From positions 1 through 64,000 of the IMG/VR virus record IMGVR_UViG_3300022939_000016: a stretch of 64,000 bases of DNA; one strand, written 5' to 3'. Origin of the DNA: a virus. Positions 1 through 25,000 of this stretch are shown one piece after another. Numbering within the stretch: position 1 is the stretch's first letter; each line of letters begins with the position of its first letter. A model generated the notes under the pieces. That model saw nothing but the letters and a program-made list of their open reading frames with translations, made no database searches and was not told the origin of the DNA. A program made the translations under genes and the position numbers.

Positions 1-3000
1 AGTGGCAGCTTTCTCAAGACAGCGGAGCAACGTGGAGTGATATTGCTAGCGAAACGTCACCTAGCCTTACTTTCACTGGCTTGACGACTTCAGATGATGG
101 CAATAGCTATCGAGTGGTGGTTACGGCTGTGACTCCGGTCGAGACTGTAACCTTGAACAGCGATGCTGCAACCTTGAGCATACTACAGCCAAACTTGGAG
201 ATCTCAACCCATCCACAACACGTATCTGCATCTCAAGGAGATGCTAGTTTTAGCGTTGTTGCTAGCGAAAGTGCTTATAGCACTACGCTCGATTACCAGT
301 GGCAGCTTTCTCAAGACAGCGGAGCAACGTGGAGTGATATTGCTAGCGAAACGTCACCTAGCCTTACTTTCACTGGCTTGACGACTTCAGATGATGGCAA
401 TAGCTATCGAGTGGTGGTTACGGCAGTGACTCCGGTAGGGACTGTAACTGAGTATAGCGATGTGGCGACGTTGAGCGTTCCGGTTGAACTGGAAATCACC
501 TTGCAGCCCCAGAACACCACTGCATCTGGCGATGAGGCATCGTTTGCCGTGGCTGCGGCGATCAACGATGGGTCGGCGCTGACGTATCAGTGGGAAGAAG
601 AAAGGCTGCCTGTGGCTGGGGAGGTGTGGAAGCAGCGGACGCTGCCACAGTCAACAGGGTGGACAAGCGTCACCTACGGCAACGGCACGTTCGTCGCGGT
701 GGCATACGGCAACTACATCGCCGCGACCAGTACCGACGGAATAACATGGACGCAGCATCCGACGCTCCCGGCTTTTGGATCTTGGAGCAGCGTCACCTAC
801 GGCGATGGGACGTTCGTCGCGGTGTTAATGAACACAAACATCGCCGCCACCAGCACAGACGGAGGACAAACGTGGACGCAGCGGACGCTGCCAGTGACAG
901 TATTTTGGGAGAGCGTCACCTACGGCAATGGCACGTTCGTCGCTGTGGCCGGCAACACTGCCGCGACCAGCACAGACGGAGGACAAACGTGGACGCAGCG
1001 GACGCTTCCGGCGGCGGGGTACAGCAGCGTCACCTACGGCGATGGGACGTTCGTCGCGGTGGCATTGAACACAAACATCGCCGCCACCAGCACCGACGGC
1101 ATTACGTGGACTCAGCGGACGATGCCAGCGACAGCATATTGGCGCAGCGTCACCTACGGTAATGGTACGTTCGTTGCTGTGGGAGTCAGCCCCAGCAACT
1201 TCAACGTACAAATCGCCGCGACCAGTGCCGACGGCATTACTTGGACTCAGCGGACGATGCCAGCGACAACAGCATATTGGCGCAGCGTCACCTACGGCAA
1301 TGGTACGTTCGTCGCTGTGGCTGGCGGCACCAATATCGCCGCTACTAGCCCCGACGGGATTACTTGGACGCAGCGGACGCTGCCAGCGACAGAATCGTGG
1401 TACAGCGTCACCTACGGCAATGGTACGTTCGTTGCTGTGGTAGAGGCCAGCAACATCGCCGCGACCAGTGACTCGACCCTTCAGTTCGTCCCCATCTCCG
1501 GCGAGACTTCCTCGACGCTCAATCTCACCGACCTTACCACCGCCGATGATGGTGGGCGATATAGGGTTGTCGTGGACTCGCCGTCGGTGGAGCCGGTGAT
1601 AAGCGATGCTGCAACTTTGAGTGTACCACAACCAAACTTGGCTATCTCAACCCAGCCGCAAAACCAAACTTCCGATGTGAACGCCCAAGCCAGCTTTAGC
1701 GTTGTGGCTAGCGAAAGTGTTTACAGCACTACACCTACGTACCAGTGGCAGCTTTCTCAAGACAGCGGAGCAACGTGGAGTGATATCGCCAACGAAACGT
1801 CATCTACCCTTACTCTCGCTGGCTTGACGACTTCAGATGAGGGCAATAACTATCGAGTGGTTATTACGGCTGCGACTCCGGTAGAGACTGTAACCTTGAA
1901 CAGCGATGCTGCAACCCTGAGTATACTACCAAGCAATTTATACTTTCAGATTAATCCCACAGACTCTACATCTGATTCATCTGGTAATGTTACTTTCAGC
2001 GCTTTAGCAATAGAAGATGTTTATAACTCACCACCCACATACCAGTGGCAAAAATCTACAGACAGTGGACAGAATTGGTCTGATATTCAAAATGAAAATA
2101 GCGAAACGTTAACTTTATCAGTTTCAAGTTCAGATAATCTTAATCAATACAGAGTGATAGCCACCACGGTAACGCCTGTAGAAACCGTTTCATTAACTAG
2201 TAGTCATGCTATTTTAGAAGTTCCAGCTGGTGGAATAATTTTTGACACACAGCCAGCAAATACAATTTCTGATATAAACAGGACGGCTTCATTTACTGTT
2301 TTAGCTCATGAAGAAGATTATGGACAAACAGTTAATTATGAATGGCAAGAATCTAGCGATGGTGTTTCGTGGATCACTTTATCTGAAACTTCGACAACCC
2401 TTAATTTAACAAATTTAACTTTAGCAAAGAATAATTATCAATATCGCGTTGTAGCAACATCTGATACTGGAGTAATCGGTGAAGTGACTAGAAATAGCAA
2501 TGTTGCAACCTTGAGCATACTACAACCAAACTTGGTTATTTCAACTCAGCCCGTTGATACCACCTCTGATGTTAATGCTGAAGCCAGCTTTAGTGTTGTG
2601 GCTAGCGAAAGTGTTTATAGCACTACGCCAGATTATCAGTGGCAGCTTTCTCAAGACAGCGGAGCAACGTGGAGTGATATTGCTAGCGAAACGTCACCCA
2701 CCCTTGCTCTCACGGGTTTAACGACTTCAGATGATGGTAATAGCTATCGAGTGGTGGTTACGGCAGTGACTCCGGTAGGGACTGTCACTGTGAATAGCAA
2801 TGCTGCAACCTTGAGCATACTACAACCAAACTTGGTTATTTCAACTCATCCACAACACGTATCTGCATCTCAAGGAGATGCTAGTTTTAGCGTTGTTGCT
2901 AGCGAAAGTGTTTATGGTACTACGCCAGATTATCAGTGGCAGCTTTCTCAAGACAGCGGAGCAACGTGGAGTGATATCGCCAACGAAACGTCAGCTACCC

Positions 3001-3415
3001 TTGCTCTCACGGGTTTAACGATTTTAGATGATGGTAATAGCTATCGAGTGGTGGTTACGGCAGTGACTCCGGTAGGGACTGTCACTGTGAATAGCAATGT
3101 TGCAACCTTGAGCATACTACAACCAAACTTGGTTATTTCAACTCACCCACAACACGTATCTGCATCTCAAGGAGATGCTAGTTTTAGTGTTGTTGCTAGC
3201 GAAAGTGCTTATAGCACTACGCTCGATTACCAGTGGCAGCTTTCTCAAGACAGCGGAGCAACGTGGAGTGATATCGCCAACGAAACGTCATCTACCCTTG
3301 CTCTCACGGGCTTAAGGACTTCAGATGATGGTAATAGCTATCGAGTGGTTATTACGGCGGTGACTCCGGTAGGGACTGTAACTGAGTATAGCGATGTGGC
3401 GACGTTGGCGGTTCC
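1..3415 (+). repeat. Intragenic ~291-300 bp tandem repeats encoding Ig-like domains
   Basis: The block cagtggcagctttctcaagacagcggagcaacgtggagtgatat recurs at about 1, 297, 1743, 2637, 2934 and 3231. The units at about 1930-2520 are divergent and AT-rich. Confidence 0.9.
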
Positions 3416-4595
3416 GGCGACGTGGATTCAGGTCGGCGCAGACATCGACGGCGAAGCGGCTGGTGATTTCAGCGGTGCGTCAGTGGCAATGAGCAGCGAT
3501 GGCAGTCGGGTTGCGATTGGGGCGTATTACAATAGCGGCGCAGCCACCGAAGCTGGTCATGTTCGCGTTTACGATCTAGTCGGTTCAACGTGGACACAGG
3601 TTGGCGCAGACATTGACGGTGAAGCGGCTGGGGATTGGAGCGGATTTTCAGTGGCGATGAGCAGTGATGGCAGTCGGGTTGCGATTGGTGCGCGCTGGAA
3701 TGACGGCTTAGGCGCAGGCACCAACACTGGTCACGTCCGCGTGTATGATCTGGTTGGTTCAACATGGGCGCAGGTCGGTGCGGACATTGATGGCGAAGCC
3801 GTTGGAGATCAAAGTGGCTGGTCTATCGCGATGAGCAGCGACGGCAGCAGGGTTGCGATTGGTTCTTATCGTAACGACGATGCAGGAACCGACGCTGGTC
3901 ACGTTCGCGTCTACGACCTAATTGGCTCAACATGGACGCAGGTTGGAGCGGACATCGACGGCGAAGCGGCTTACGACGAGAGCGGCTACTCGGTCGCGAT
4001 GAGCAGCGATGGCAGCAGGGTTGCGATTGGGGCGATAGGCTTCAGCGACACAGGCGGAAACGCTGGTCACGTCCGCGTTTACGATCTGGTCGGCTCCACT
4101 TGGATGCAGGTCGGCTCCGACATCGCCGGCGAAGCGGATAGAGATTACAGCGGTGTGTCAGTGGCAATGAGCAGCGATGGCAGCAGGATTGCGATTGGGG
4201 CGGATGGAAACGGCGGCGCAGGCACCGACGCTGGTCACGTCCGCGTTTACGATCTGGTCGGCTCCACTTGGACGCAGGTTGGCGCGGATATTGACGGTGA
4301 AGCTATGAATGATCACAGCGGATTTTCAGTGGCGATGAGCAGTGATGGCAGTCGGGTTGCGATTGGGGCGTATGGAAACGACGATGCAGGCTTGACCGCT
4401 GGTCACGTTCGCGTCTACGACCTAATTGGCTCAACATGGACGCAGGTTGGAGCGGACATCGACGGTGAGGCGGCTGGTGACGCAAGCGGGCGATCAGTCG
4501 CAATGAGCAGCGATGGCAGCAGGATTGCGATTGGAGCGTATGTAAACGACGACGCAGGCACAAGTGCTGGTCACGTCCGCGTTTTTGATGTTTGA
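1..4595 (+). CDS. Giant virion adhesin/fibre protein (5' truncated): tandem Ig-like domains, 7-repeat Asp-box beta-propeller and C-terminal 7-repeat FG-GAP-like propeller
   Basis: Frame is open from base 3 (WQLSQDSGATW...) to TGA 4595. It has about nine Ig-like units (QP...ASFSV.A...YQWQ...DG..YRVVV), seven SVTYGNGTFVAV...STDG.TW repeats and seven QVGADIDGE...SG.SVAMSSDGSRVAIGA...AGHVRVYD repeats. Confidence 0.85.
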   Translation, partial: WQLSQDSGATWSDIASETSPSLTFTGLTTSDDGNSYRVVVTAVTPVETVTLNSDAATLSILQPNLEISTHPQHVSASQGDASFSVVASESAYSTTLDYQWQLSQDSGATWSDIASETSPSLTFTGLTTSDDGNSYRVVVTAVTPVGTVTEYSDVATLSVPVELEITLQPQNTTASGDEASFAVAAAINDGSALTYQWEEERLPVAGEVWKQRTLPQSTGWTSVTYGNGTFVAVAYGNYIAATSTDGITWTQHPTLPAFGSWSSVTYGDGTFVAVLMNTNIAATSTDGGQTWTQRTLPVTVFWESVTYGNGTFVAVAGNTAATSTDGGQTWTQRTLPAAGYSSVTYGDGTFVAVALNTNIAATSTDGITWTQRTMPATAYWRSVTYGNGTFVAVGVSPSNFNVQIAATSADGITWTQRTMPATTAYWRSVTYGNGTFVAVAGGTNIAATSPDGITWTQRTLPATESWYSVTYGNGTFVAVVEASNIAATSDSTLQFVPISGETSSTLNLTDLTTADDGGRYRVVVDSPSVEPVISDAATLSVPQPNLAISTQPQNQTSDVNAQASFSVVASESVYSTTPTYQWQLSQDSGATWSDIANETSSTLTLAGLTTSDEGNNYRVVITAATPVETVTLNSDAATLSILPSNLYFQINPTDSTSDSSGNVTFSALAIEDVYNSPPTYQWQKSTDSGQNWSDIQNENSETLTLSVSSSDNLNQYRVIATTVTPVETVSLTSSHAILEVPAGGIIFDTQPANTISDINRTASFTVLAHEEDYGQTVNYEWQESSDGVSWITLSETSTTLNLTNLTLAKNNYQYRVVATSDTGVIGEVTRNSNVATLSILQPNLVISTQPVDTTSDVNAEASFSVVASESVYSTTPDYQWQLSQDSGATWSDIASETSPTLALTGLTTSDDGNSYRVVVTAVTPVGTVTVNSNAATLSILQPNLVISTHPQHVSASQGDASFSVVASESVYGTTPDYQWQLSQDSGATWSDIANETSATLALTGLTILDDGNSYRVVVTAVTPVGTVTVNSNVATLSILQPNLVISTHPQHVSASQGDASFSVVASESAYSTTLDYQWQLSQDSGATWSDIANETSSTLALTGLRTSDDGNSYRVVITAVTPVGTVTEYSDVATLAVPATWIQVGADIDGEAAGDFSGASVAMSSDGSRVAIGAYYNSGAATEAGHVRVYDLVGSTWTQVGADIDGEAAGDWSGFSVAMSSDGSRVAIGARWNDGLGAGTNTGHVRVYDLVGSTWAQVGADIDGEAVGDQSGWSIAMSSDGSRVAIGSYRNDDAGTDAGHVRVYDLIGSTWTQVGADIDGEAAYDESGYSVAMSSDGSRVAIGAIGFSDTGGNAGHVRVYDLVGSTWMQVGSDIAGEADRDYSGVSVAMSSDGSRIAIGADGNGGAGTDAGHVRVYDLVGSTWTQVGADIDGEAMNDHSGFSVAMSSDGSRVAIGAYGNDDAGLTAGHVRVYDLIGSTWTQVGADIDGEAAGDASGRSVAMSSDGSRIAIGAYVNDDAGTSAGHVRVFDV
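625..1470 (+). repeat. Seven ~120-bp GC-rich repeats encoding an Asp-box/BNR-type propeller
   Basis: agcgtcacctacgg...acgttcgt...gc occurs seven times, in frame. Confidence 0.85.
3420..4592 (+). repeat. Seven ~168-bp GC-rich repeats encoding an FG-GAP-like propeller
   Basis: atgagcagcgatggcag...ttgcgattgg and ggtcacgt.cgcgt occur seven times, in frame. Confidence 0.85.
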
Positions 4596-6765: not shown

Positions 6766-7611
6766 ATGGCAAATATTTCTAGAATTAATTACGCCTTACA
6801 AAGCTTTAAAGTCGGAGGTTCCTTAATAGGCGGCGTACAAAGCGTTGGGGCAAGCTCTACAACAAACATCGAAACATTTAGTGCTTTTGGTAGCAATTCG
6901 GCTGTTCCAATTGTACAAGATATAGATCTTGAGATCACCGTAGAAGCCGCAATGGGCAGCTGGGCTTCTCCAGCAACAATTTGGGATTCGCCCGTGGATG
7001 TTGAAATCATTTACTCATCGGCTGGGGGTTTTAGCACTATAAAATTAAATGCCGTTGCCTCGTCTTATTCTTTACAGATGGGTGTAGATGGTCCAGCTAC
7101 TGAATCTGTAACATTCCAAAATACTGGCACTTCAACATTTACCAGCGGTAGCGCTTCTGCGTTACACAGTGGCGCTAACTGTTCTGTTATTACTCGTCCA
7201 GATTTTACAAGCTTTACAGCGACCAATAAAGGTGATTGCGATGGCGCTGGCGCTTCTGGCCCTGTCACTTATGGCAACGTTTTATCTGTTGGCATGAGCT
7301 GGGACGCTGGAGTAGAAAAGGTTAGCATATTAGGCCAAAGTTTACCAGCTGGAAAGTTTGCTACTTTCCCAATCGAGGTCACTACCGAAGTTGAAACTCA
7401 CGCTGCTGGCGCTCCCAGCCTTCCAAATAGTCAAGTAATTTCTAACAACAAGGCGGCTGGTTATCTTTATGACTTAGCAATAGGACTAGGTTCCAGAACT
7501 CGCGGCACTACTGGTGCTGTAATGGCGAGTAGTAGCATACAGGGAGGCGATGTGGGTGGCGGTAACGTCTCGCAAAGCACTAGCTGGACGAGTTACAGTT
7601 CGTGGTATTAA
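6766..7611 (+). CDS. Major tail tube protein
   Basis: Own promoter-like motif and strong RBS (AAGGGAGA); S/G/T/A-rich all-beta character (GVQSVG...SYSLQMGVDGPATESVTF...FATFPIEVTTEVE); lies upstream of chaperones and TMP. Confidence 0.7.
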   Translation: MANISRINYALQSFKVGGSLIGGVQSVGASSTTNIETFSAFGSNSAVPIVQDIDLEITVEAAMGSWASPATIWDSPVDVEIIYSSAGGFSTIKLNAVASSYSLQMGVDGPATESVTFQNTGTSTFTSGSASALHSGANCSVITRPDFTSFTATNKGDCDGAGASGPVTYGNVLSVGMSWDAGVEKVSILGQSLPAGKFATFPIEVTTEVETHAAGAPSLPNSQVISNNKAAGYLYDLAIGLGSRTRGTTGAVMASSSIQGGDVGGGNVSQSTSWTSYSSWY

Positions 7612-7626
7612 TGGTAGGATTTTTGC

Positions 7627-8541
7627 TTGAGGACAGACGAACAGGAAAAACTGATTAATTCAATTCGTTCTGGCACTGTTGTTTCTAAAAATATAACAAT
7701 AGTGCCAGCAACGTTTGATCAACTATCCTTAGCTAGCAATGTTTATTCTGAAAGTTTTTCAAATTGCTTAGATGAAGGTTTAATGACAGAGGAATCTTTG
7801 GAGAGATGGATGTTAGAAAATAATATTTTACCAATCGGTTTTTACGGCATTAAAAAATCGTTAATTGAAAAAATAGACTCTCTTAAAAAGGACTTGTTTT
7901 TTAATAGAAAGTCAAAATCTTCTATTAAACTTTTGAAGCAAGATTTACAAAATGCTAGATCTAGTTTGGCTGATTTGGTTAAACCTAAATCTGAATTCAT
8001 AACAAACACTTGCGAGTTTATTGCTCAGACTAAAAAAATAATATTTCTGCTCAAGAATACAACATACAAATCTGGCAAGCTCTATAGGCCGTCAAATTTT
8101 CAACATATTATAGATTTGTGGCAAAATTCTTTACTGTCTGAATCTTGCATTAGGTTTCTGTGCCGCACCGCTATCTGGAGTTCTGTCTGGAGTAACAGGG
8201 GTTTTGGCTTTGATTTATTTTGCGTTAGAAAAAATACGGACTTGACTATTAATCAAAGAAATATGTTAACTTGGTCTAGGGTATATGACAACATAAACGA
8301 GTCTTTAGATTGTCCACTTGATTTCGTAATTGAAGACGACGATATGTTAGACGGCTGGCTGTTAATCCAAAAAAGCAAAAGAGAAAAAGAGGCTAAAGAA
8401 CGAGATAAAGAAAATACAGGAGCGAGTCCTAAATTTAGTAAAAACCATCAACACTTATTTACTTACCAAAACGATGAAGATTTAAATGATGAATTTACAT
8501 CAAACACGTTTGAACATAATGTAGGAATCACAAATGAGTAA
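7627..8541 (+). CDS. Putative tail assembly chaperone
   Basis: Helical/coiled-coil protein between tube and TMP genes; TTG start. Confidence 0.45.
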   Translation: MRTDEQEKLINSIRSGTVVSKNITIVPATFDQLSLASNVYSESFSNCLDEGLMTEESLERWMLENNILPIGFYGIKKSLIEKIDSLKKDLFFNRKSKSSIKLLKQDLQNARSSLADLVKPKSEFITNTCEFIAQTKKIIFLLKNTTYKSGKLYRPSNFQHIIDLWQNSLLSESCIRFLCRTAIWSSVWSNRGFGFDLFCVRKNTDLTINQRNMLTWSRVYDNINESLDCPLDFVIEDDDMLDGWLLIQKSKREKEAKERDKENTGASPKFSKNHQHLFTYQNDEDLNDEFTSNTFEHNVGITNE

Positions 8542-8869
8542 CTATGAAAGAAAGCGAAATTCTTTGCAGGATATTAGATCCAAGAAAATACTTTCAGATA
8601 ACATAAAGAAAAAAATAAAGACCACAATGATTGGTTCCATAAGTAGCATAGAAAAACATTTTACTTTTTTATGGGAAGAAAACATACTAAACGAGGATCA
8701 GAAGCATACTGTTTTAGAAAAATTTGAAAGTTTAAGATCAGAAATATTAGACAAGGGAAATCATCAAATTAGAAATGTTGATATAGAATTACAAAATTAT
8801 TACGTTCAATACGTGGAACCAGAAGGAAACCACATTAACTTTTTTATAAATAGAGGAGATTCCAGATGA
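8534..8869 (+). CDS. Hypothetical protein (tail assembly region)
   Basis: 111 aa, overlaps both neighbours, RBS AGGA. Confidence 0.6.
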   Translation: MSNYERKRNSLQDIRSKKILSDNIKKKIKTTMIGSISSIEKHFTFLWEENILNEDQKHTVLEKFESLRSEILDKGNHQIRNVDIELQNYYVQYVEPEGNHINFFINRGDSR

Positions 8870-9738
8870 GTAAGGAAAAAAGAAAGAATTTTGAAGTCAA
8901 GCAAGAAAATGGCGAAACGATAAAAATGTTTGTAGTTTCTCCACCAAGTAGCGTTCTTTCTGGCGCTCAAAGAGTTGCCGCAAAGGTTTGGACGGATTGC
9001 GTTAGGGATAAAATCATGACAAAGCAAGAGTTGAAAAACTTTATGTACGAAAACAATTTATGGGACTCCTCAAAAGATGTTCAGCAAGTTGCTTTAAGTA
9101 ATGAAATTCAGCAGCTAGAAAAAGAATTATATATTGGAAAAAATGGCCAAAAAACAATGAAAACTTCCGAGGCTAAAGAAATTGCAATAAAGATGAGGAT
9201 AGCAAGATCAAAGTTACGAGATCTTATTGCTGAAAAAATGTCACTAGAACAGAACACGGCAGAGGCTATTTCGGAAAACGCCCGTTTTGATTTCATTGTT
9301 TCTAAATGCACTTTTTACGAAGACGGTAAAGCAGTGTACGAAAATCTTGATGATTATAACCAAAATTCAGATTCAGATATTGCCTTTGAAGCCGCTTCTA
9401 ATATGGCCCAATTGATTTATGCTCTTGATAAAGATTTTGAAAAAAATCTTCCTGAGAATAGATTCTTAACAAACAAAGGTCTGGTAAATAACGATTTAGC
9501 ATTGGTTAATAATGAAGGAGAAACTGTTGATACCAATGGGCGAAGGATTAATGAGTACGGTTATTATATTAATAATGATGGTCAAAGAACTGATATCGAT
9601 GGAAACTTATTAGATGAAGATGGGAATTATGTTCCATCTGTAGAATACGTTGACGACGAACAGGTTCCTCAAGAAGAAGTAAAAACCAATACTAAAACAA
9701 AGCGACGAATATCTAAAAAACCACAAAAAACAGTTTAG
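8866..9738 (+). CDS. Putative tail assembly chaperone with C-terminal beta-hairpin repeats
   Basis: RBS AGGAG; directly precedes the TMP; coiled-coil followed by 7-residue (D/N)xxG repeats. Confidence 0.5.
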   Translation: MSKEKRKNFEVKQENGETIKMFVVSPPSSVLSGAQRVAAKVWTDCVRDKIMTKQELKNFMYENNLWDSSKDVQQVALSNEIQQLEKELYIGKNGQKTMKTSEAKEIAIKMRIARSKLRDLIAEKMSLEQNTAEAISENARFDFIVSKCTFYEDGKAVYENLDDYNQNSDSDIAFEAASNMAQLIYALDKDFEKNLPENRFLTNKGLVNNDLALVNNEGETVDTNGRRINEYGYYINNDGQRTDIDGNLLDEDGNYVPSVEYVDDEQVPQEEVKTNTKTKRRISKKPQKTV

Positions 9739-9764: not shown

Positions 9765-12700
9765 TTGTCTAAATTCGTACTAACAGCGCAGTTGCAGCTA
9801 CAAGCTCCAACGAACGTAAAGCAAGTTGTCAGCCAGATCCAAAAGCAATTGTCTGGCGTTTCTGTTAATCTGCAAATGACAGGAAGCCAGAAGGCACAGT
9901 CTCAGCTAAATCAGATAAAAAATTCTTTAGACGATGCTACCAAAAGCTCCTCAAAGCTCGGAAAAACTTTTGGTCAACAGGTAAGAAGATTCTCTGCTTT
10001 AGCAATTGCCACTAGGGCTGTTAGCCTGTTTACAAACACTTTAAGCTCTGCAATTCAAGAATCAATATCTTTTGAAAGAGAGCTTATTAAAATTGCTCAG
10101 GTTACGAACCAGACAATTCAACAACTGTCTTTTTTATCAAAAACAGTTTCTGATCTTTCAACTAATCTTGGAATATCTTCTAGTTCTTTACTTAGTGTTA
10201 GTAGAATTCTTTCTCAGGCTGGTCTTTCAGCTTCAGAAACAAGCATTGCTTTATCTACTCTTGCCAAGACCGAATTGGCCCCAACTTTTGATAATATTAG
10301 CCAAACCGCCGAAGGTGCAATTGCTATATTTAATCAGTTCAAGCAAGGGGCTGCCGCTCTTGAGGAGCAATTAGGTTCTATAAACGCTGTTGCTGGACAG
10401 TTTGCAGTTGAATCTGGAGATTTAATTTCAGTTGTTCGACGAACCGGTGGCGTTTTTCAAGCAGCTGGCGGTGAACTTAATGAGCTAATTGCATTATTCA
10501 CCAGTGTTAGATCCACAACGCGAGAGTCTGCCGAGAGTATTGCGACTGGCTTGCGAACTATTTTCACTAGAATTCAAAGACCAAGAACAATTGAATTCAT
10601 GAAAAAGTTTGGAGTAGAATTAACAGACTTGGAAGGCAAGTTTGTTGGCCCCTACGAGGCCGTTCGACGCTTAAGCTCTGCGCTTTCTGGCCTAGAACAA
10701 GGCGATATAACATTTGTTCAAATTGCAGAAGAGCTTGGCGGCTTTAGACAAATTGGCAAAGTTATCCCCCTCCTGCAACAGTTTAGTGTCGCTCAAGAAG
10801 CCTTAAATGTGGCCCAAAGAGGAAGTGGTTCCTTAGCAAGAGATGCTGCCACGGCGCAGCAATCTTTAGCGGTTCAAATTATTAAAGTCAAAGAACAATT
10901 CTTAGAGCTTATTAGAGGCGTTACTGAAACTCCAACGTTTCAAATTATGGCCCAAAGCGCTTTAACTTTAGCCTCTGCTTTAATTAAGGTTGCTGAATCC
11001 CTTAAGCCAATTCTTCCCATTATTAGTGCTATAGCAGCTGTTAAATTCGCCAAAGGAATGAGTGGTTTTTTGGGTGGATTAGCTGGAAGCTTGAGCGGAG
11101 CAAAGGGTTTTAATGCTGGTGGTAAAGTTCAAGCATTTGCAACTGGCGGCATGGTTCCCGGATCGGGGAATAGAGATACCGTCCCAGCAATGCTTACCCC
11201 CGGCGAGTTTGTTATGCGTAAGAGTAGCGTTCAGAAGATTGGCGCTAAGAATCTAAAGATGATGAATGAGGGTGGAAAAGCAGATCCCTTAATCCAAAAG
11301 GGAACACAGGTTGGCGGTGTTGGTATTTTTGATAGCGACATGATTGGCGCTGGAAGCAAGGGGATTCTTGGGAAACTCAAGTCTTCCGGTAAACAATACG
11401 AAGTGATTCATGGGCCAGCCGGTTCTGGTAAAACAACATTTGCGACAAAACGATTTGGCAGTAACTTTATAAAGTCCGAAGAAGATCTTGATAAATATAG
11501 TAAGTTTGTTGTACTAAGCGGCGCTGGCAAAGTAAAGGCCGGTGGCCTAAGTCCAGATGCTTCTTCTTTGTTTTCTGGTGCTACAAAAATAACAGGATTA
11601 TCACCAAGCCCAGAAACGGTTTTACAAAGAAGAGAACAAAGATTAGCCACAGGCTCCATAGACAAAAGGTCAGAAAAGGCACTTCGTGGCACTCTTAAAG
11701 CGCCAACTACATTTGATCAAGATTTATACAAAGGATTTAATAACGTTGAAATATTAGAAAAATTTGCAGATGGCGGCAAAGCAAAGGATAAGAAAAATAT
11801 TCTTGATGATGGCTTTACGATCAAGCCAAGCACACAAACTCACTTTACGCATTTGGACAGTGGCCAGACAAGCAATTTGCCAAAGGACTTCAGAAAAGTA
11901 TATACCAATATGGGTCTTGATCTTCCCGCTAATTGGAATCTTGACTGGGCTACCAACGTAACAAATCAAAAGGGCGCAATGGGTTCTGCTTTAGAGTCTT
12001 ATATTGCTGATCCTAGTCATAATATTTTTGACACGTTAACACGTCAAGGACGAGGCTCTAAAGCTTATGGCTTTAAAGGCCGATCCAAATCTCAAGCTTT
12101 TTCACTTCTGAGCGACCCTAGTAACCAATCAAAAATTAGAAGTAATTTAGTTGCTGCTATTAGTTCTAGTGAACAATTTGATACTGATCTTGATGTTAAT
12201 AAAACGTTGCCCAACGCCCTAACTACAGCTGTCGCAAAGTCTTTACCCAAAGAAGATGCCGCAGTCTTAAACAGCGGTCTAGAAGAGCAAAGCGCTTACG
12301 CAAAAGAAGGTAAATCTGGCAGAAGGAGATTGAGTAACAGAAGGCGACAGCAGCTTGCGCAAGCTCGATCTTTAGGTGGTGTGATACAAAAGTTTGCTGG
12401 TGGTGGTAAAGCTCAGGAAAAACCAGAGAAAAACTTTGGTAAGATTGGATTTAGATCTACTACTGGTGGCGAATTAACCGCGACATATCTTGGCAAGAAA
12501 GGCAGAACCGGAATGGTCTCAGCTAGATATAATAACGGTCTTTACACCGTTGCTTTATCTAAGGCTACTTCCGGCTATGGCCCCATGTTATACGATGTTG
12601 TCATGGAGCTTGCTACTGCAAATGGTAGCATGTTGACCTCAGACAGAAATCAAGTCAGCAAAGATGCTCAGGGTGTATGGGATTATTATTTTAACAAGAG

Positions 12701-15700
12701 GAATGATGTTACTAAGCATCCGCTAGATCCATCTCAGTGGACCAAGAATCAGTCACTGATTGATCCCAAGCTGTATGGCAAGAAAGAAACGTGGCCTCCT
12801 AAAACAGATCCGGCGTGGGTACTCCAGAGCGGTTACAAAAAATCTCAACGCATAACCACGGATCCAAACAGAGCTATCAATCTTAATGACCCTAAGTATG
12901 CTAATTTTATTAGACAATCTCAGATGTCTTATATGAAGCCTGCTCAGAAAAAACAGTTTGGCGGTATTATACAGAAGTTTAAAGATGGCTCAACAGGTAC
13001 TGGAGTAGCCCCTGCTAGAAACAGGATGGGAATGACTTCAGCACAAGTGGCCGCTGCTGAAGAAAGAAAGCGTTTAAGAGAGAAAGCCAAAGCCGGGGCT
13101 GGAGGAACTTTACAATTAAAGCCGGGTGTTGTCGGTGGGCTGTTTTTACAAAAAGGCTCTGGAGGTCAGAGCGGAATAGATAAGTCTCTTCAGGGCATAG
13201 AATTACCGGGATTTGCAGAAGGTTCTAACAGATTAAAAGCTAGTATATACACCGGCCAACTAAAACCAGAAGCTGGACAGGCCATAAGAAACGAATTAAA
13301 ACCAAACATCACACAAGCCGTGCAAAACGCTGCCTCTTCATCTATGGCAGCTTTGGAAATTAGCCCACTTGATATTGACGAAAAGTCGGCAGCAAAAAAG
13401 GCTGTTAATAAAATTGATTTAACTTCAATAGAAGGTTATATATTTGAGGCGTTCACCTCCGCACTAACTGGATTACAATTATCTGACGCTGGTGCTACGT
13501 TTGACTATGTTAATCCTTCTGGCAGAGCGAGAGAAAGAGTTGGACAATTATTTAGCTCTGGCTTAAGTGGCGAAAGACTTTTAGACGCGAAACGCACACT
13601 TAGTACTGAGAGTGTGCAGTCTGGTAAAAGCTCTATTGCTAACAAGATTGTAGCCGGTATTAAGGGTGGCTTGTTGGGTCCACAAGACTTTCAAAAATTT
13701 GCCACTGGCGGTATAGTTCCCGGAACTGGTAATAGTGATACTGTTCCCGCATCTCTTGGGGTTGGTGATTTTGTAATACGTAAAAGTAGTGTTAATAGCA
13801 TTGGCGCTGGAAATTTGCAAAAAATGGCTGGATATGCTACGGGTGGAAATGTCAGCGAATCTGTTCCCGCGCTTTTGACTCCGGGAGAATTTGTATTCCC
13901 CAAAAAGAAAGCCCAACAAATTGGCTACGGTAAACTTAACCGCATGAACAAGGTGGGTAAGTACGCCAAAGGTGGTGCGGTCCAAAGATTTGCCGGGGGT
14001 GGTAAATCAGGTGGGGGTGGTGGTGGATTCTTGGGGTTTGGAGGTTTGACAGAAGGATTAGTAGGAGTGCAAGTTGCGCTAAACATGTTAACCCCAACTG
14101 TCGATGAGAACAGTGGAACTTTTGAGAAAATGACGGCCAGTGTTTTAAGTTCTTTCGGCTCTTTAGTTAGCACAATAACCTTAACTCAAACGGCGCTTTC
14201 AACTTTTGGTGTCCAATTAAATTCTAAAGCTATAGGCAATTTCCTTAAATCTTTTGGTCACGCTCCTAAGACTATGGGAGAATTTTTGGGTTCTCTTAAA
14301 AAAGGCGTTGGTCGTGGTTCTGCCGGTTTAGGAGATATGATTGGTGGATTTCAAAAAGGCGGTCAGCGAACTAAAGGCGAAAGTTTTGCTGAAAATTTTG
14401 ATTTAAATAAAAGAGGTAGTAGTGTTAGAAGCGAAAGAGCTAAACAATTAGTAGAGATGAGAAAAAGAAATCCTATTGCAAAAGGGGGTTTCTCAAAACA
14501 GTCTGCATTACAAAGAAAAGCATTGCGACCCGTTGGCGGCAAAAGCATTTTAGCACAACTTGGCAAAAAGCTTGGAGCATCAAGAAGTATTGTGGGCAGA
14601 GGCGCTGGTATGGCTTTGCGAGCTGGCAGCTCGGCTGCTGGAGCATTAGGCGGTCTAGGCGGTGGTGCGGTTGGTGCGTTTGGAGCATCCTTAGCTGCTG
14701 CTGCTGGCCCTATTACCGCATTTGTTACCGCTGTAAAAATTGCTGGAGCTGCTATTTCTGGCTTTAGAGATTTAGAAAACAGATTAAAAGACGCAATTAA
14801 AGCCGAAGATACAGCCACTGCACAAAAACTTGCTACAGCCTCTTTAGTTGAACAAAATTGGGGCGGCGCTATCGGCGGTATCGCCTCTGTTCTTGACAAC
14901 TTATCATCTTCAGGATCTCTCGCTACAGATACGCTAGCAGCCATAGGCACTGCTTTTGGCGGTACTTCCTCTGCCGCGATCAAGGCAGACGTTGCGGCTA
15001 GAATATCTAGCGCAAAAACCGCCAAAGCCCTGACAGAGGCTCAGAAAGCTTCAGCTGAAGCAATGAAAGATCTAGAGAACGGTACTATTTCTGCAAGTCA
15101 AGCTCTGGCAAAAGTTCGATCATTTACTCAGCAAGCTGAACAAAATTCTAAGGCGCAAAGAGCTGCTATATCAACCGCCGCCGAAGGCAAGTCTACTGGA
15201 GCTTTGAGCTATGGTCGAGAAGCTATGGCTTATCTTAGCTTTGGTTATGTTGATTCTGCTAGACAAAGAAATGAAAAAATTGATGCTGAAAACGAAAAAA
15301 GAAGTCAAGACAGCATTAACCAAAGAAGGCAAGCAATAGGTATTCAAAGTCAAGCAAGTATGGCTACTGCTAGAAGCATACTTTCTACTGGTGGAAATAT
15401 AGATGAGGTTAAACAAAGACTTGGAGATGCTGGCCCTCAAAAACTTAGAGATGAAGCTATAGAGGTTAGACAAAAGGCAATCAAGGCAACCAAGGAAGGC
15501 GACACAGAAACAGCAAAGCTGCTTGAAGAAGAAGCGAAAATGCTTTCTGATGAAGCTAGAGCTTTAGAAAAATCTCTCATCAATCTAGCCAAAGAGGTCG
15601 AAAAGCAACAAAAATATTTTGCAGCTATGAACCTTGGGCTAAATTCTGCAACTGGCGCTGCTGGAGCTTTTAGTAACGCTATGTCTAATTACGCTGCCGC

Positions 15701-18053
15701 TCAAGAGGCTGGCAATGTTTCTGTCATGAGAAGCTTTGCTACTCTTCAAGCCGGTGTGACATCAGCTGCTGCCGGTATGGACCCAGCGGTTTTTCAAAAG
15801 GCAGCCTCAGAAGGCGCGAAAGCGTTACGAGAATTTGGAGCAACGAAAGAGGCTGATAAATTTGAAGCCAACTTAAATGCAATAAATAAAGCGCAAGCAA
15901 ATGCAGAAGCTGGTTTAAATTCCTTTAGGAATCAACTAAAAGACAGATCTGATAGCGGCCTTGGTTTAAAAAATGATGAACAAAAATTTGAAGGTTTATT
16001 TGATACAATAGTCAAGGGTTCTGGGATTGGCAAAGAGATGGAAGATCAACTCCGAGACATGCTTGGAGGAATGGACATTGATTATAGCAAGATTGCAAAG
16101 GGTGATTTTAGTCAAATCGAAGAAGTATTCAAACAGCTTGGAGATGAAACGTTACAGCAAGCTAAAGCTGTCATGGAAGCAGAGCAACTGTACCAAGAAA
16201 CTATTCGCGATGCAGCGCAAAAAAGAGCAGCCGCTGAAAACGATTTCATTTCAGCTTCAAGACAGAGACAAGATTACCAAAAAGAATCTAGAGAAATTAT
16301 AGCTTCAGCTGGGGGTCCAGCTTTTACTGCGCAGCAACAAAGGGAGATGGTTGTTGACCGTTATAATACTGGTAATAAATTTTCTAATCGTGACAATCTT
16401 GGTGGTGCTACCGCTAAAGACATTGTTGCCCAACAAAACGCCCTTAAGCAGCGTCAGGCTGAAATACAAAATGTTAGACTTCAAGCAGCACAAGGCGATG
16501 CCAACGCTGAAGCAAAACTTTCTGGAGAAAGAGGTGTTTCATTATCCAATGAAGAATCTCAAATCAATCAACAAAATCAAGAGCTATATAACTCAACCAA
16601 GCAGCTTATTGACATAAAAAGACAAGAAGTTAAAATTATTCAAGAAAAAAATAGACTTGAAAAACAATCAATGGAGTCTTTGCTTGCTGGTGATATAGAT
16701 AGCTTTTTTGATGCCCAAGCGTCCCAAGGAGCCATTGACGCTCTCGCTGGCGGTGGCAACGTCGCTGACTTTGATGCAGACACTTTATATAGTGCGTTTG
16801 AGGAGTTAAAAAGACAAGCAGCTGCTGGAGTTACGGAAGTTAATGGTCAGCAACTGCAAGGGCCGGGAGGTTTACTTGAACGAGCAGCTGCCGCAACCGC
16901 CGAAGCTCGCGGTCTTGATCCAGCACAAGCGGCTCTCGTTGCTCAAAAAGCAGCTGGACAAACACCCGCAGAGCAAGCGGCAAATAATGAAATACAACAA
17001 TTAGCTGCAACTTTGCCTGCGTTTGGCGATATGGCTATGAATTCTTCTCGGGTGCAAATGGCCGCAGCCGAAGCTCAAAGACAAGCGGCTGAGATTCAAA
17101 AAGAAGCCGCTGTTAAAAGATCTCAAGAAAACGCAGAAAGAACATTGCCAAAGCCAGACCAGCAACAGCCTCCACAGCAACAGCCCCCAGCAAGACCTTC
17201 TACGCCTCCACCGGGAGCTTCACCTCCCCCCGCCCCCATTCCTCCCTCTGCGTCTGTTTCTGCGCCGCCGCCACCTTCTGGTTCTAGCTCTTCTGTGGGT
17301 TCTACTCCTCCTGCACCCCCGTCTTCTACTGCTGACATCGCCGCAGCCGCCGCAGCTGCCGCTAGTCAGATACCTTCTTCAGTTAATGCAAATCAAACGC
17401 CACCAACTCAAGACCCGCAAACTATTGGTCAAGCCATCGCGCAAGCTTTTAGTAACAATGCTCGTGATTTTGCTTCATTTGCAACTGCCGGATATGTTAG
17501 ACCTAGCCAAGAAAATGAATCGCAGGGCGTGGGCATTCGCCAACTTGCCAACCTTAATCCAGCTATGGCTCTTGGTAATATGGCGGCTTCTAATCTTGGT
17601 TTAGACACTCAAGCCTTAACTTCGTTTACTAGCAATCAATTAGAATCTGTCTCTAATTTTGGCGCAGCCGTTAAGCAGTTTGAGTATATTGTTAAAGCTA
17701 TAAATACAACAAACGGCTCAAATAATACTTCTGTTAACAATGGCTCCACTCAAGCTCCAGCTAGCAACAATAATTCTGCTATTGGGTTCGATACTTCTTC
17801 TATGAATCAGTTTACTTCAGCCTTAAGTAAGTTTAACGACACAATACTACAAAGTATAAGCACTCTACAACAAACTAAATTTACTGTTAAGCTAGAACCA
17901 ACTAATATTAACATTAATTTAACTGGAACTTCATTCCTGCAAGCTCTTACTGGCGACCTAAAGTCTAGCTTGTTAAAGATAGTTAGTGAAAAAATAAGAA
18001 ACCTCAAGGTAGACAGCGCCGGAAGAGTAATAGAAAGTAATAGTAATTTGTAA
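9765..18053 (+). CDS. Tape measure protein with internal enzymatic cargo domains
   Basis: 2762 aa. TP901-like TMP core (FERELIKIAQVT...TTRESAESIATGLRTIFTRI), hydrophobic Gly/Ala segments, long Ala/Gln helices and three lambda gpH-like FAxGG...GEFV modules. TTG start with GGAG RBS. Confidence 0.92.
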   Translation: MSKFVLTAQLQLQAPTNVKQVVSQIQKQLSGVSVNLQMTGSQKAQSQLNQIKNSLDDATKSSSKLGKTFGQQVRRFSALAIATRAVSLFTNTLSSAIQESISFERELIKIAQVTNQTIQQLSFLSKTVSDLSTNLGISSSSLLSVSRILSQAGLSASETSIALSTLAKTELAPTFDNISQTAEGAIAIFNQFKQGAAALEEQLGSINAVAGQFAVESGDLISVVRRTGGVFQAAGGELNELIALFTSVRSTTRESAESIATGLRTIFTRIQRPRTIEFMKKFGVELTDLEGKFVGPYEAVRRLSSALSGLEQGDITFVQIAEELGGFRQIGKVIPLLQQFSVAQEALNVAQRGSGSLARDAATAQQSLAVQIIKVKEQFLELIRGVTETPTFQIMAQSALTLASALIKVAESLKPILPIISAIAAVKFAKGMSGFLGGLAGSLSGAKGFNAGGKVQAFATGGMVPGSGNRDTVPAMLTPGEFVMRKSSVQKIGAKNLKMMNEGGKADPLIQKGTQVGGVGIFDSDMIGAGSKGILGKLKSSGKQYEVIHGPAGSGKTTFATKRFGSNFIKSEEDLDKYSKFVVLSGAGKVKAGGLSPDASSLFSGATKITGLSPSPETVLQRREQRLATGSIDKRSEKALRGTLKAPTTFDQDLYKGFNNVEILEKFADGGKAKDKKNILDDGFTIKPSTQTHFTHLDSGQTSNLPKDFRKVYTNMGLDLPANWNLDWATNVTNQKGAMGSALESYIADPSHNIFDTLTRQGRGSKAYGFKGRSKSQAFSLLSDPSNQSKIRSNLVAAISSSEQFDTDLDVNKTLPNALTTAVAKSLPKEDAAVLNSGLEEQSAYAKEGKSGRRRLSNRRRQQLAQARSLGGVIQKFAGGGKAQEKPEKNFGKIGFRSTTGGELTATYLGKKGRTGMVSARYNNGLYTVALSKATSGYGPMLYDVVMELATANGSMLTSDRNQVSKDAQGVWDYYFNKRNDVTKHPLDPSQWTKNQSLIDPKLYGKKETWPPKTDPAWVLQSGYKKSQRITTDPNRAINLNDPKYANFIRQSQMSYMKPAQKKQFGGIIQKFKDGSTGTGVAPARNRMGMTSAQVAAAEERKRLREKAKAGAGGTLQLKPGVVGGLFLQKGSGGQSGIDKSLQGIELPGFAEGSNRLKASIYTGQLKPEAGQAIRNELKPNITQAVQNAASSSMAALEISPLDIDEKSAAKKAVNKIDLTSIEGYIFEAFTSALTGLQLSDAGATFDYVNPSGRARERVGQLFSSGLSGERLLDAKRTLSTESVQSGKSSIANKIVAGIKGGLLGPQDFQKFATGGIVPGTGNSDTVPASLGVGDFVIRKSSVNSIGAGNLQKMAGYATGGNVSESVPALLTPGEFVFPKKKAQQIGYGKLNRMNKVGKYAKGGAVQRFAGGGKSGGGGGGFLGFGGLTEGLVGVQVALNMLTPTVDENSGTFEKMTASVLSSFGSLVSTITLTQTALSTFGVQLNSKAIGNFLKSFGHAPKTMGEFLGSLKKGVGRGSAGLGDMIGGFQKGGQRTKGESFAENFDLNKRGSSVRSERAKQLVEMRKRNPIAKGGFSKQSALQRKALRPVGGKSILAQLGKKLGASRSIVGRGAGMALRAGSSAAGALGGLGGGAVGAFGASLAAAAGPITAFVTAVKIAGAAISGFRDLENRLKDAIKAEDTATAQKLATASLVEQNWGGAIGGIASVLDNLSSSGSLATDTLAAIGTAFGGTSSAAIKADVAARISSAKTAKALTEAQKASAEAMKDLENGTISASQALAKVRSFTQQAEQNSKAQRAAISTAAEGKSTGALSYGREAMAYLSFGYVDSARQRNEKIDAENEKRSQDSINQRRQAIGIQSQASMATARSILSTGGNIDEVKQRLGDAGPQKLRDEAIEVRQKAIKATKEGDTETAKLLEEEAKMLSDEARALEKSLINLAKEVEKQQKYFAAMNLGLNSATGAAGAFSNAMSNYAAAQEAGNVSVMRSFATLQAGVTSAAAGMDPAVFQKAASEGAKALREFGATKEADKFEANLNAINKAQANAEAGLNSFRNQLKDRSDSGLGLKNDEQKFEGLFDTIVKGSGIGKEMEDQLRDMLGGMDIDYSKIAKGDFSQIEEVFKQLGDETLQQAKAVMEAEQLYQETIRDAAQKRAAAENDFISASRQRQDYQKESREIIASAGGPAFTAQQQREMVVDRYNTGNKFSNRDNLGGATAKDIVAQQNALKQRQAEIQNVRLQAAQGDANAEAKLSGERGVSLSNEESQINQQNQELYNSTKQLIDIKRQEVKIIQEKNRLEKQSMESLLAGDIDSFFDAQASQGAIDALAGGGNVADFDADTLYSAFEELKRQAAAGVTEVNGQQLQGPGGLLERAAAATAEARGLDPAQAALVAQKAAGQTPAEQAANNEIQQLAATLPAFGDMAMNSSRVQMAAAEAQRQAAEIQKEAAVKRSQENAERTLPKPDQQQPPQQQPPARPSTPPPGASPPPAPIPPSASVSAPPPPSGSSSSVGSTPPAPPSSTADIAAAAAAAASQIPSSVNANQTPPTQDPQTIGQAIAQAFSNNARDFASFATAGYVRPSQENESQGVGIRQLANLNPAMALGNMAASNLGLDTQALTSFTSNQLESVSNFGAAVKQFEYIVKAINTTNGSNNTSVNNGSTQAPASNNNSAIGFDTSSMNQFTSALSKFNDTILQSISTLQQTKFTVKLEPTNININLTGTSFLQALTGDLKSSLLKIVSEKIRNLKVDSAGRVIESNSNL

Positions 18054-22081: not shown

Positions 22082-25000
22082 ATGGCAGGTTTTAATTTAT
22101 TCGTTGGCGGCGATTACTACCAAAAAGATGATATCAATCTTTTTGCCAACGGCAAGGAATATTCTTATGATCAATTAAATTTATATCATTCTGGACAAAC
22201 ACCTCCAGAATATGAAATGAATCTTTATGCTTCTGGCGATAATGTTTATTACTCCTCAATGTCTCTTCATACCCTAACAACATTTTCTTTTAACAATCCT
22301 TTCATAAACCAAGACGATGAAGATGGAGGAGGGGAAGGAGGAGGCGGTGGAGATGGTGGAGGCGATAATAATCTAGACCCATTTGACTATATGCCCATAT
22401 TTGTTAATGGTGCTGAAAATATACTTTCAGATGAAGACAATCCTTATCTCAATCTGTTTGTAGCTAAAGATAATCCACCCGGACTGCCGTTAGACAATTT
22501 ATTGCATTTAAGCATTGACGTTGCTGACTATAGTGTTTCAGAGTCATCATTGATGCTTTCTTTATGGCAGCTTGAGTTTTCAAGAACCCCCGTTGAGACT
22601 TCTTCATGTAGCTTATATATTTCTGGCTTTTTCCAAGAAGCACCCGCAGCCGAAGGGATGTCTCTATATCTTGAAAATTATGTATCATCTCAAGCTATTT
22701 CTGATAGCCTTGGTTTATTTTTGGCTAATAACTATTTAATTAAATGGGACTCTTATGACTTCGGACTGAATTCTGAGCCTAACGACGATATTTATGCAAC
22801 CGTTCCCGCCACAGATGCTATTCGTGGCGTTCAACTTATTTGTTACGGCGCTTGCGGTCAAGGCACTTGTGAAGACGTAAGCGTTGAAACTCATGACACC
22901 GTTTGGTTTGATCCAGTTTGTGTTGACGGTGGTATTTTTAGGGCTTCAGATGTTTATACTAATTTAGATATAGATGCTTTTGGATCTGAAGTTCCTTATA
23001 GCGGGCATTTTTATGGTTTTAGAAAACTTGACAAGTTATTACCTTTGCAAAAATACTTCATAAATATCATAGGCCAATCTGGATCCTCGGCAAAGATTAC
23101 CGCCCCGAAAGAATTAGCTAGTTGGGAATATACTATTGATGGCAGCGACGTTGCCTACTCTGGATTGAAGCTTATTGGTGATAGTCCATTTGTTCAAAAC
23201 GGAAGAAATGCTGGAGATCAGTATGGTAGCAGCCTTTCTATGAATGGAGATTTACTCGCCGTTGGATCCCCCCACTTTTCTTTTCCAGACGAACTGGGAT
23301 ATACTCTTCAAGACGCAGGAACAGTTTTTCTTTACAGAAGAGGACCAGAGCCTGATTTTGACCAAATTGTTAGCAATAAAGCTGGATGGGATTTAGAAGG
23401 ACAGCTGAGACTTCCATCTGGAATACTGAGAGATTATTATACTGATACTCCAACAACGCAGGAAGATGGTATTGATATCGTTTTGAGAAATTGGAATCTT
23501 GGTCAAGAGGGCAGAAATTTTGGAAGTAGTGTTCACGTATGCTCTATTACAAATGATGACCCTTGGATTACTAGTGACAATAGAGAAATAATTGCCGTTT
23601 CTGCTCCAAACGCCCAGTGGTCTAGAACATTTCCCGACCTACAAATACAAAGCAACGACATCATTTTCTTTGTTTTTACCGACGAATTCCTGCCCAGCTT
23701 TACTGTCACAATAAGGGGTGAAGAATACACGTTGACCTATAGAGACATTGTTAAATCCATTACTTCTAAAAATCTATTGTATACTTATTACTCGCTACCA
23801 ACCATCTCTTTGAATATAAATATCGTAATCTTCCATCCGATTGATGCAGACATACAGCCAAGTCCAAGTTTTCCAGAACCACAACCTTCTTTTATTGTCA
23901 AAAAACCAATCACTAGACACAGAGAAGAGGCTTATGGCAGTCAAGAATTCTTAGATATAGATGACGAAATATTAGAGCAAATAAAAAATGTTTTCTATGA
24001 ACTTTATCCATATGATACAAACAAGCAGCACAATAATATACCAGCCATTCTTGGGGTTTATGTTGATAATTCTAGATCTTTGGGTTCTCAAGCAATAGAG
24101 CCAGCCCTTAGTAGGTTTAAAGAGCATTACCAAGAATACGCCTTTCAAAGTGGCGTTGCGGATGTTTTTGGAAACCCTTCCTCTGGAGCCGTGCTTTCTA
24201 CCACCTCTTTGGATGAAAATTGGATTTTACAAACAACTACTGTTATTGACTTCACACTAGATAGCGGAAGACTTGCTACTAATAATCATTTAAGCCTTTT
24301 GACAGACCCTTCTACTTTTGGAGTTTTCAATGAAAATCTCCCCGAGTTTAACATTCCACCCAGCAGCGGTGGTTGTGTTTACTTATTCGAAAAAGAATCT
24401 GATTCTTGGAATTTGATTCAACAAATTAATTCTCCCACCGAAGATAATACTATCACTCCTGACCTGTTTGGTAAATCTATTAAGATGAGTGAGGATGGGT
24501 CTATTTTGGCGGTAGGATCGCCATATATCAATGAAGCCATAATGGTTTACGAAAGAGATCCAAGAGAACAGAATAGAATGTATAGCAATATTGAAAGTTG
24601 GGTAGATTATCATTTAGAAAAAGACGAGCTAAACGAAAGATACGCTTATTTAAAATTCACTATAGAAAATTTGAGAGCTTCTGGTAATTTTACAGATGGA
24701 GATTCTGGTGTATATAGATCTTTATTCTTTGAGCTTTCACATCAGGAAAAATACGATTACAGAAATGATTATGATTTCTGGGGTGATAAACCAATACAAG
24801 AATACAAGCACAATTTCACCTATCGTTATACAGACATTGACTACAAGGGTACTTACCTAAGCTTATTAGAAGAGTTTGCGCCAACTTCTAGAATGGGATA
24901 CAGCGTAGCCGTAGAAGACGCTGGAGAATCTGTTGCGTTCGGTTGTCCAACCGATAGCTTGGACGAGCTAGATGACACAAACTCATACTATCACCCAGAT

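Follow-up and report, generated by a model that had tools for sequence, protein, structure and literature searches.

How does the ruler protein of a phage tail come to contain a block of globular, enzyme-like domains, and what might these domains do there? The question is raised by the open reading frame (ORF) at 9765-18053 of the window analysed here, the first 64 kb (64,000 nucleotides) of a 78.7-kb IMG/VR viral contig (IMGVR_UViG_3300022939_000016) that is ~52% complete. Residues 126-312 of its product match PhageMin_Tail (PF10145) with 79.3 bits against a gathering cut-off of 33.2 (E-value 4.6e-22), the protein matches PHROG tape-measure families, and its position fits a tail module, after the tube gene and the genes in chaperone position and before large tail-tip genes. 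By sequence, the virus is a divergent, siphophage-like one and the product of this ORF is its tape measure protein (TMP). The gene product is a TP901-type TMP with a fixed chassis and an exchangeable cassette slot. The evidence supports the view that conserved joints delimit the domains of the insert block in this slot and that each domain is an independent, enzyme-like unit open to exchange. Among related phages, these cassettes are acquired, lost and replaced in frame, precisely at the GG joints.

A first, sequence-only reading had proposed that residues ~449-1413 interrupt the helical ruler as a block of four unrelated globular domains of 160-230 amino acids (aa), each lying between recurrences of a short motif. 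A composition scan agrees: Trp, Tyr and His are present in the four segments, and the flanking ruler is rich in Ala, Gln and Ser and nearly devoid of Trp, His and Cys. The globular segments between the joints (aa 449-1413) measure 161, 195, 181 and 228 aa and show no mutual similarity. All ten recurrences listed in that reading were found in place, positions 12375 and 12960 being those of the preceding GG, with QKF starting at 12387 and 12972; the copies FNAGG, MNEGG and KFKDGS are degenerate. There are seven matches to the strict form [FY]A.GG, none of them outside aa 458-1413, as compared with 20,000 shuffles of the protein, which average 0.19 matches and never exceed 4.

The block is flanked by longer copies of the same element. 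The ~45-aa modules that had been noticed, one to the left of the block and two to its right, were located at aa 453-500, 1307-1354 and 1352-1394 by a profile hidden Markov model (HMM) built from the three ~48-aa modules of the TMP itself. The left module was matched in all 120 related TMPs, and a mean column identity of 59% among 22 divergent aligned sequences makes the module the best-conserved part of these proteins. Every cargo domain is closed by a short joint, GG-x-[IV]-Q-K-F-A-x-G-G, which also forms the head of the module. The DNA of the joints forms short direct repeats, with four 37-nt copies 62-81% alike, and the left module and right joint module 1 constitute a 119-nt direct repeat that is 74% identical. 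The conservation of the joints lies far above what a flexible linker would need, and they are probably recognition sites for a conserved partner.

The cassettes are readily seen to move among relatives. A search with the insert returned 971 proteins of 1.5-4.8 kaa (thousand residues), nearly all of which carry PF10145, and an exhaustive search found TMPs reaching 7122 aa. In their general plan, 450-630 aa of N-terminal sequence are followed by a module, a cargo slot of 200-2300 aa, another module or pair of modules, and then ruler stretches of ~1000 aa separated by further modules, giving 1 to 8 modules per protein; in nearly all relatives modules bracket the whole cargo block on both sides. 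The design is a common one among predicted proteins, with hundreds of giant TMPs bearing different cargo in the same slot. Cargo 1, 2, 3 and 4 occur in 21, 13, 60 and 36 of 120 TMPs, respectively, in differing combinations and positions, and the slot of one relative (P0056) holds, between two modules, a weak SNase-like match, an ADP-ribosyltransferase (PF03496, E-value 7.6e-11) and the GNAT-like domain of cargo 3.

In the nearest relative, P0002, whose common parts are 83-95% identical, cargo 1 (aa 506-667) and cargo 3 (aa 874-1067) are missing through clean in-frame indels with their ends immediately behind GG, and in P0006 the MNEGG of the left module is fused directly to the first residues of cargo 3. 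We also compared the window with contigs from four sequencing runs of four studies (salt-marsh, estuary, marine and freshwater) and found junctions at which single cassettes are skipped (Table 1). An estuary contig lacks cargo 1 as a clean indel, and the junctions 11279>11797, 12373>12945 and 12389>12975 are in frame when inserted letters are counted. Across the copies of cargo 1 and cargo 3, an [FY]A.GG lies no more than 30 aa from the projected ends in about half to two-thirds of cases; it is rarer near those of cargo 2 and cargo 4, the background being 1.5 per 1000 aa. In the comparison that the sequence-only reading had proposed, the identity and number of the cargo domains vary among the 120 TMPs, in P0002 and in the contigs, while the joints and flanks stay constant. 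Recombination between the DNA repeats of the joints would be the likely route of exchange.

The wide variation in cargo number and length (slots of 200-2300 aa) and the exchange at short repeats are also what one would see if the slot were a recombination hot spot in which domains are merely tolerated as extra length. We find such neutral passengers very improbable, because catalytic-type residues are invariant in embedded and free copies at 25-60% identity, the indels in P0002 and at the first three contig junctions preserve the frame, and cargo 3 and cargo 4 are modelled as confident folds.

Table 1. Features of the tape measure protein gene, cassette-skipping contig junctions and neighbouring genes, in window coordinates.
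Feature	Position	Strand	Basis or remark
Tape measure protein gene (P0001), 2762 aa	9765..18053	+	single open frame
Hydrophobic stretch aa 402-425, then Gly-rich lead-in aa 430-448, preceding module 1 (left module)	10968..11108	+	hydropathy scan
Left joint module (FNAGG, FATGG..DTVPAMLTPGEFV..IG..NL..MNEGG), aa 449-504	11109..11276	+	module HMM 89 bits
Cargo 1, aa 505-665; GIFDSD, Walker A GPAGSGKTT, VLSG, RRxxR	11277..11759	+	weak Pfam P-loop matches
Joint KFADGG	11760..11777	+	right breakpoint of cargo-1 indel
Cargo 2, aa 672-866; THFTHLD, Y.N.G.DLP..WN..W	11778..12362	+	conserved in 17 relatives, all within TMPs
Joint GGVIQKFAGGG	12375..12407	+	left breakpoint of cargo-3 deletion (P0002; contigs of runs X13, X14, X15)
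Cargo 3, aa 882-1062; GYGP.LYD..ME, SDR..VS..A..VW.YY..R.D	12408..12950	+	predicted GNAT-like fold
Joint GGIIQKFKDGS	12960..12992	+	right breakpoint of cargo-3 deletion; left breakpoint of cargo-4 skip
Cargo 4, aa 1078-1305; invariant E (IEG.IFE), D (FDY), D-A-K-R, K	12996..13679	+	confident predicted alpha/beta fold
Right joint module 1 (QKFATGG..DTVPASLGVGDFV..IG..NL), aa 1307-1354	13683..13826	+	module HMM 76 bits
Right joint module 2 (GYATGG..SVPALLTPGEFV..IG..L), then joints KYAKGG and QRFAGGG, aa 1356-1413	13830..14003	+	module HMM 65 bits; DNA repeat families D2-D5
C-terminal ruler part, Ala/Gly/Gln-rich; hydrophobic stretch aa 1635-1668	14004..18053	+	composition, hydropathy
Contig junction skipping cargo 1	11279>11797		run X15
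Contig junction skipping cargo 3; cargo 1, 2 and 4 kept in contig	12373>12945		run X14
Contig junction skipping cargo 3; 585 nt = 195 codons, linker to linker	12389>12975		runs X13, X15 (two studies)
Contig junction skipping cargo 4	12980>13694		run X17
Major-tail-protein-like gene, upstream of TMP	6766-7611		phrog_1407, E-value 1.9e-5
Two ORFs, 111 and 290 aa, with 4-nt overlap (ATGA)	8534-9738	+	directly upstream of TMP
2495-aa tail-region protein	22082-29569	+	FG-GAP repeats PF14312, E-value 1.6e-10; no further recognisable family
1530-aa ORF	3-4595	+	first 2 kb GC 55% vs 35-44% in remaining contig

What kinds of proteins, then, occupy the slot? In cargo 1, GPAGSGKTT is invariant in ten of ten sequences and conforms to the Walker A pattern GxxxxGK[ST]; a D-x-D upstream of it, an S-G and RRxxR are also invariant among the ten. 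The strand after the Walker A motif ends in the invariant S-G, without the Asp or Glu of a Walker B motif, and RRxxR could be a lid. Free-standing relatives of ~150 aa match the AAA, NACHT and AAA_33 families. Profile matches in the Protein Data Bank (PDB) run only through the P-loop, and tblastn against GenBank phages gave no match. We read cargo 1 as a putative minimal, kinase-like P-loop NTPase.

Cargo 3 is predicted to fold confidently as a divergent GNAT-like domain, that is, with an acyltransferase superfamily fold. The assignment comes from AlphaFold and two structure searches: the model is a confident one, and its top 50 neighbours in VIA are all GNATs. A conserved G-Y-G-P stands ahead of a helix, at the place expected for the coenzyme A (CoA)-binding motif Q/R-x-x-G-x-G/A, and invariant polar residues are common to the TMP-embedded and free forms. 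Neither cargo 3 nor ten free homologues had a Pfam match, and cargo 3 had no PDB sequence match and none by tblastn against GenBank phages. The family occurs in 139 IMG/VR contigs, with ~19 copies inside TMPs and at least 30 as free genes of 170-260 aa. In one locus (L095:2240-5008) it is fused with DUF192, a poly(A)/CCA-polymerase head and PAP2, and in another (L087:2714-6823) with two or three canonical GNAT domains and HNH. These fusion partners hint at a nucleotide- or tRNA-related substrate. Because the cargo-3 family is found as free-standing genes and in other fusions, its sequence distribution suggests that the domain can work as a free protein, and so might cargo domains in general.

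Cargo 4 is predicted to be a novel alpha/beta domain without a known structural match. Its AlphaFold2 model, from a 28-sequence alignment, has a predicted local distance difference test (pLDDT) value above 90 over ~220 residues (~aa 1090-1310). Besides the TMPs counted above, the domain occurs in 21 metagenome loci, and a module always follows it. The invariant Glu, Asp and D-A-K-R fit the PD-(D/E)xK motif. A PD-(D/E)xK nuclease-like identity would rest only on this motif; the fold searches lend it no support, since Foldseek against the PDB and BFVD gave spurious rows only (probability <0.2) and the wide VIA search gave isolated helices only. In cargo 2, motifs with His, Asn and Trp are invariant among its TMP relatives. 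For both cargo 2 and cargo 4, a word-based search for proteins of 107-400 aa found no free-standing relatives, and a single-protein scan of IMG/VR was also empty. A PDB sequence and profile search with the whole insert gave nothing meaningful. Of three segments whose nature was examined in this way, two resemble known enzyme classes, cargo 1 by sequence and cargo 3 by AlphaFold and structure searches; cargo 4 is a confident fold without a match.

We lean towards a reading in which the tail carries exchangeable enzymes and delivers them into the host ahead of the DNA. As a TMP, the protein would occupy the tail tube and be the first component to leave it at infection, taking the cassettes along. 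They would act in the host cytoplasm before phage gene expression, in take-over or counter-defence, in the manner of T4 Alt or the polyvalent proteins. The cytoplasm is suggested as their destination by their likely cofactors, as ATP, acyl-CoA and, in relatives, NAD+ are cytoplasmic. On balance, we slightly favour regarding the cassettes as delivered effectors; if the joints were not cut, the domains would act while tethered.

Several observations weigh against this delivery of enzymes by the tail. The ~4-nm lumen of a tail tube would poorly accommodate 3-6 copies of four folded domains of 18-25 kDa, so the cassettes would need unfolded or staggered packing. Cargo 2 had no match in Pfam, PADLOC or the ESM Atlas, and cargo 4 gave nothing meaningful in the ESM Atlas or in PDB sequence and profile searches. 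Pfam revealed no peptidase in the TMP (whole protein at E-values up to 1, segments up to 10) or in the eight downstream tail ORFs, and PF14464 (JAB) and PF02902 (clan CE) are absent from the contig, which represents about half a genome. The two right-hand modules, the only ones modelled, are disordered (pLDDT 40-55), making self-cleavage by a folded module unlikely. The joint module was not found in T5 pb2, the one TMP with a mapped cut, and the T5 cut cannot therefore calibrate the motif. Finally, the in-frame exchange at the joints could stem from short-repeat recombination alone, with no processing involved. A complex prediction with three module copies, which scored 0.10 compared with a mark of 0.42, weighs neither for nor against.

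The case for cutting comes from analogy with two other tails. The likeness to lambda gpH that had been pointed out from the sequence holds: gpH residues 732-773 match the module HMM (E-value 5.5e-9), and a second YATGG at 778 extends the element to 732-786. A hydrophobic stretch (691-712), a Gly-rich run and FATGG follow one another in gpH in the same order as in our TMP before module 1. During maturation a piece of ~14 kDa is cut from gpH in the Gly-rich region towards the C-terminus, at a site and by a protease that were unmapped as of 2025; the cut falls after tail assembly and before head joining, and the cut-off piece, gpHC, stays in the particle (PMC12617516). By mass arithmetic a 14-kDa piece would start at ~710-730, and a cut after FATGG (737) would release 12.2 kDa, giving a range of ~710-738. 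Lambda gpH is therefore like our TMP in its joint module, in the local order and in a cut in or next to the module region. Unlike our TMP, it has a single module, near the C-terminus, contains no enzyme domains and is not known to have enzymatic activity; the N-terminal part of gpH comes from another TMP family, and only position links its module with the cut. In T5, the cut of pb2 into pb2* and pb2C frees an enzymatic C-terminal piece that is kept in the tail (bioRxiv 10.1101/2022.09.20.507954). T5 pb2 resembles our TMP in having an enzyme domain, a muralytic metallopeptidase, inside a TMP and released at infection, but this is a single C-terminal domain acting in the periplasm, with no cassette array and no cytoplasm-type enzymes. 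By analogy with these two proteins the chain might be cut at its joints, a possibility that we hold only tentatively and consider somewhat doubtful.

If the joints are left uncut, a single TMP chain might act at the entry site through tethered effectors, with the joints serving as hinges, recombination points or binding sites for chaperones or the tube. The failure to find a protease in the TMP, the tail genes or the contig would fit such a chain, as would the Gly-rich nature of modules and joints, their disorder in the model, and the in-frame exchange at joints that form direct repeats in the DNA. Delivery without processing is also known from the N4 virion RNA polymerase and from several polyvalent proteins of plasmids (PMC5512222). 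On the other hand, the joint is conserved over ~11 residues and the module more strongly than the ruler or the cargo, exceeding what a hinge needs, and the same module adjoins the lambda gpH cut. We consider a permanently tethered chain rather unlikely.

The timing of the lambda cut, between tail assembly and head joining (PMC12617516), might also suit a function in the producer cell or in assembly, with the block excised at its flanking modules before the tail is finished, so that the virion would retain the ruler parts only. Modules flank the block on both sides in nearly all relatives, as such an excision would require, and the poor fit of folded domains in the tube lumen would no longer matter. 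However, free-standing genes would serve the producer cell more simply, the severed piece remains in the particle in both lambda and T5, and excision of a middle block would detach the N-terminal 450 residues from the ruler. The ADP-ribosyltransferase in the slot of relatives, moreover, resembles T4 Alt, which is packaged and injected. A function of the block in the producer cell or in assembly is, in our judgement, improbable.

Delivery of the enzymes into the host by the tail could also be taken one step further. In this bolder form, the [FY]AxGG/GEFV joint would be a general TMP maturation signal that includes the lambda gpH cut, and a conserved protease, either of the host or associated with the tail, would cleave behind each GG and free interchangeable enzymes into the host cytoplasm ahead of the DNA. 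We regard this as unlikely. If it were true, giant TMPs would be true polyproteins releasing kinase-like, acyltransferase, ADP-ribosyltransferase and nuclease-like enzymes, amounting to a programmable effector-delivery system within siphophage tails. The module, in any event, is a concrete candidate site for the lambda gpH cut.

The module itself is widely distributed. By tblastn it was found in the TMPs of 135 GenBank phages (of Gordonia, Rhodococcus, Achromobacter and Ralstonia), with two copies in those of Gordonia and Rhodococcus phages, and further matches came from marine single-cell viruses, Pelagibacter phages and a cyanophage 'lysozyme'. Beyond annotated TMPs, it turns up in proteins labelled as cyanomyophage 'transmembrane protein' or 'lysozyme' and in hypothetical proteins of Pelagibacter phages; the carriers include the Synechococcus phages S-SM2 (7695-7766), SynMITS9220M01 and S-SCSM1 (164292-164381), and the Pelagibacter phages HTVC104P and HTVC115P. 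The match in S-SM2 has 80% DNA identity over 72 nt. A variant module at L020:2461-2607 reads FAKGGPVTGPSHAQGGVLAELEGGEYVIPK and resembles the lambda form (..EPAGIVHRGEFVF..) more than the one with DTVPAMLTPGEFV; being intermediate, it links the two forms.

The remainder of the TMP and its surroundings are less conserved or less readily assigned. BLAST found the C-terminal ruler part to be shared with only 34-39 of the 120 relatives. A low-complexity tract rich in Pro, Ser, Ala and Gln lies at TMP aa ~2471-2560 (window 17175-17444, + strand); it is 27% Pro and 18% Ser and lacks Lys, Glu and Leu altogether, which is unusual in a TMP. Tail assembly chaperones are the usual occupants of the position directly upstream of a TMP gene, and Pfam and PHROG gave no match for either of the two ORFs found there. 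Downstream of the TMP gene lie ORFs of 1339 and 2495 aa; the large neighbours of the 2495-aa ORF (1339, 1326 and 1039 aa) are without any match in Pfam or PHROG. The DNA of the window is nearly complete in twelve salt-marsh metagenome runs of 2018, its probable source, with only parts present in marine, estuary and freshwater runs. In four salt-marsh metatranscriptome runs, 9-23% of the sampled words from window 11000-14100 were present, and transcription in situ of the TMP gene, or of a close relative, is possible.

Enzymes pre-loaded in virions decide the first minutes of infection, and their known carriers are head-packaged T4 Alt, P1 Dar, the N4 RNA polymerase and polyvalent proteins, together with tail proteins bearing single muralytic domains. 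If our TMP delivers its cassettes, the tail ruler would join these carriers as one with a standard socket, where natural populations exchange cytoplasm-type enzymes; aquatic phages would then hold a large unexplored reservoir of take-over or counter-defence enzymes, and the socket would offer a natural design for loading tails. In the literature that we searched, no account was found of cytoplasm-type enzymes arranged within a phage TMP as a bounded, exchangeable array.

The closest precedents each share part of this design. TMPs of the mycobacteriophage TM4 type have small embedded peptidoglycan-hydrolase motifs used at infection. Several TMPs with such motifs are cited in PMC12617516; their cell-wall enzymes, unlike the cargo described here, work outside the cytoplasm, with one or two motifs and no bounded exchangeable array. 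The contractile-injection-system effector Sle1 (PMC13277306) is TMP-derived and tube-loaded, with a swappable functional domain that differs between species. It belongs, however, to a bacterial contractile injection system and has a single C-terminal domain acting at the membrane, with no [FY]AxGG joint array described. The polyvalent proteins (PMC5512222) are giant multidomain proteins with shuffled, variable effectors (ADP-ribosyltransferase, GNAT, nucleases and kinases) that are thought to enter with the DNA; the paper names T4 ADP-ribosyltransferase Alt in its reference list and does not mention tape measure proteins ('tape' occurs 0 times). Our TMP, too, combines several unrelated effector or enzyme domains with extensive shuffling. 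Polyvalent proteins are delivered from the head or by conjugation and typically include a self-processing metallopeptidase, whereas the Pfam scan found no embedded metallopeptidase or self-processing peptidase in the TMP. In our case the tail ruler is the carrier, and a single joint motif recurs between the domains.

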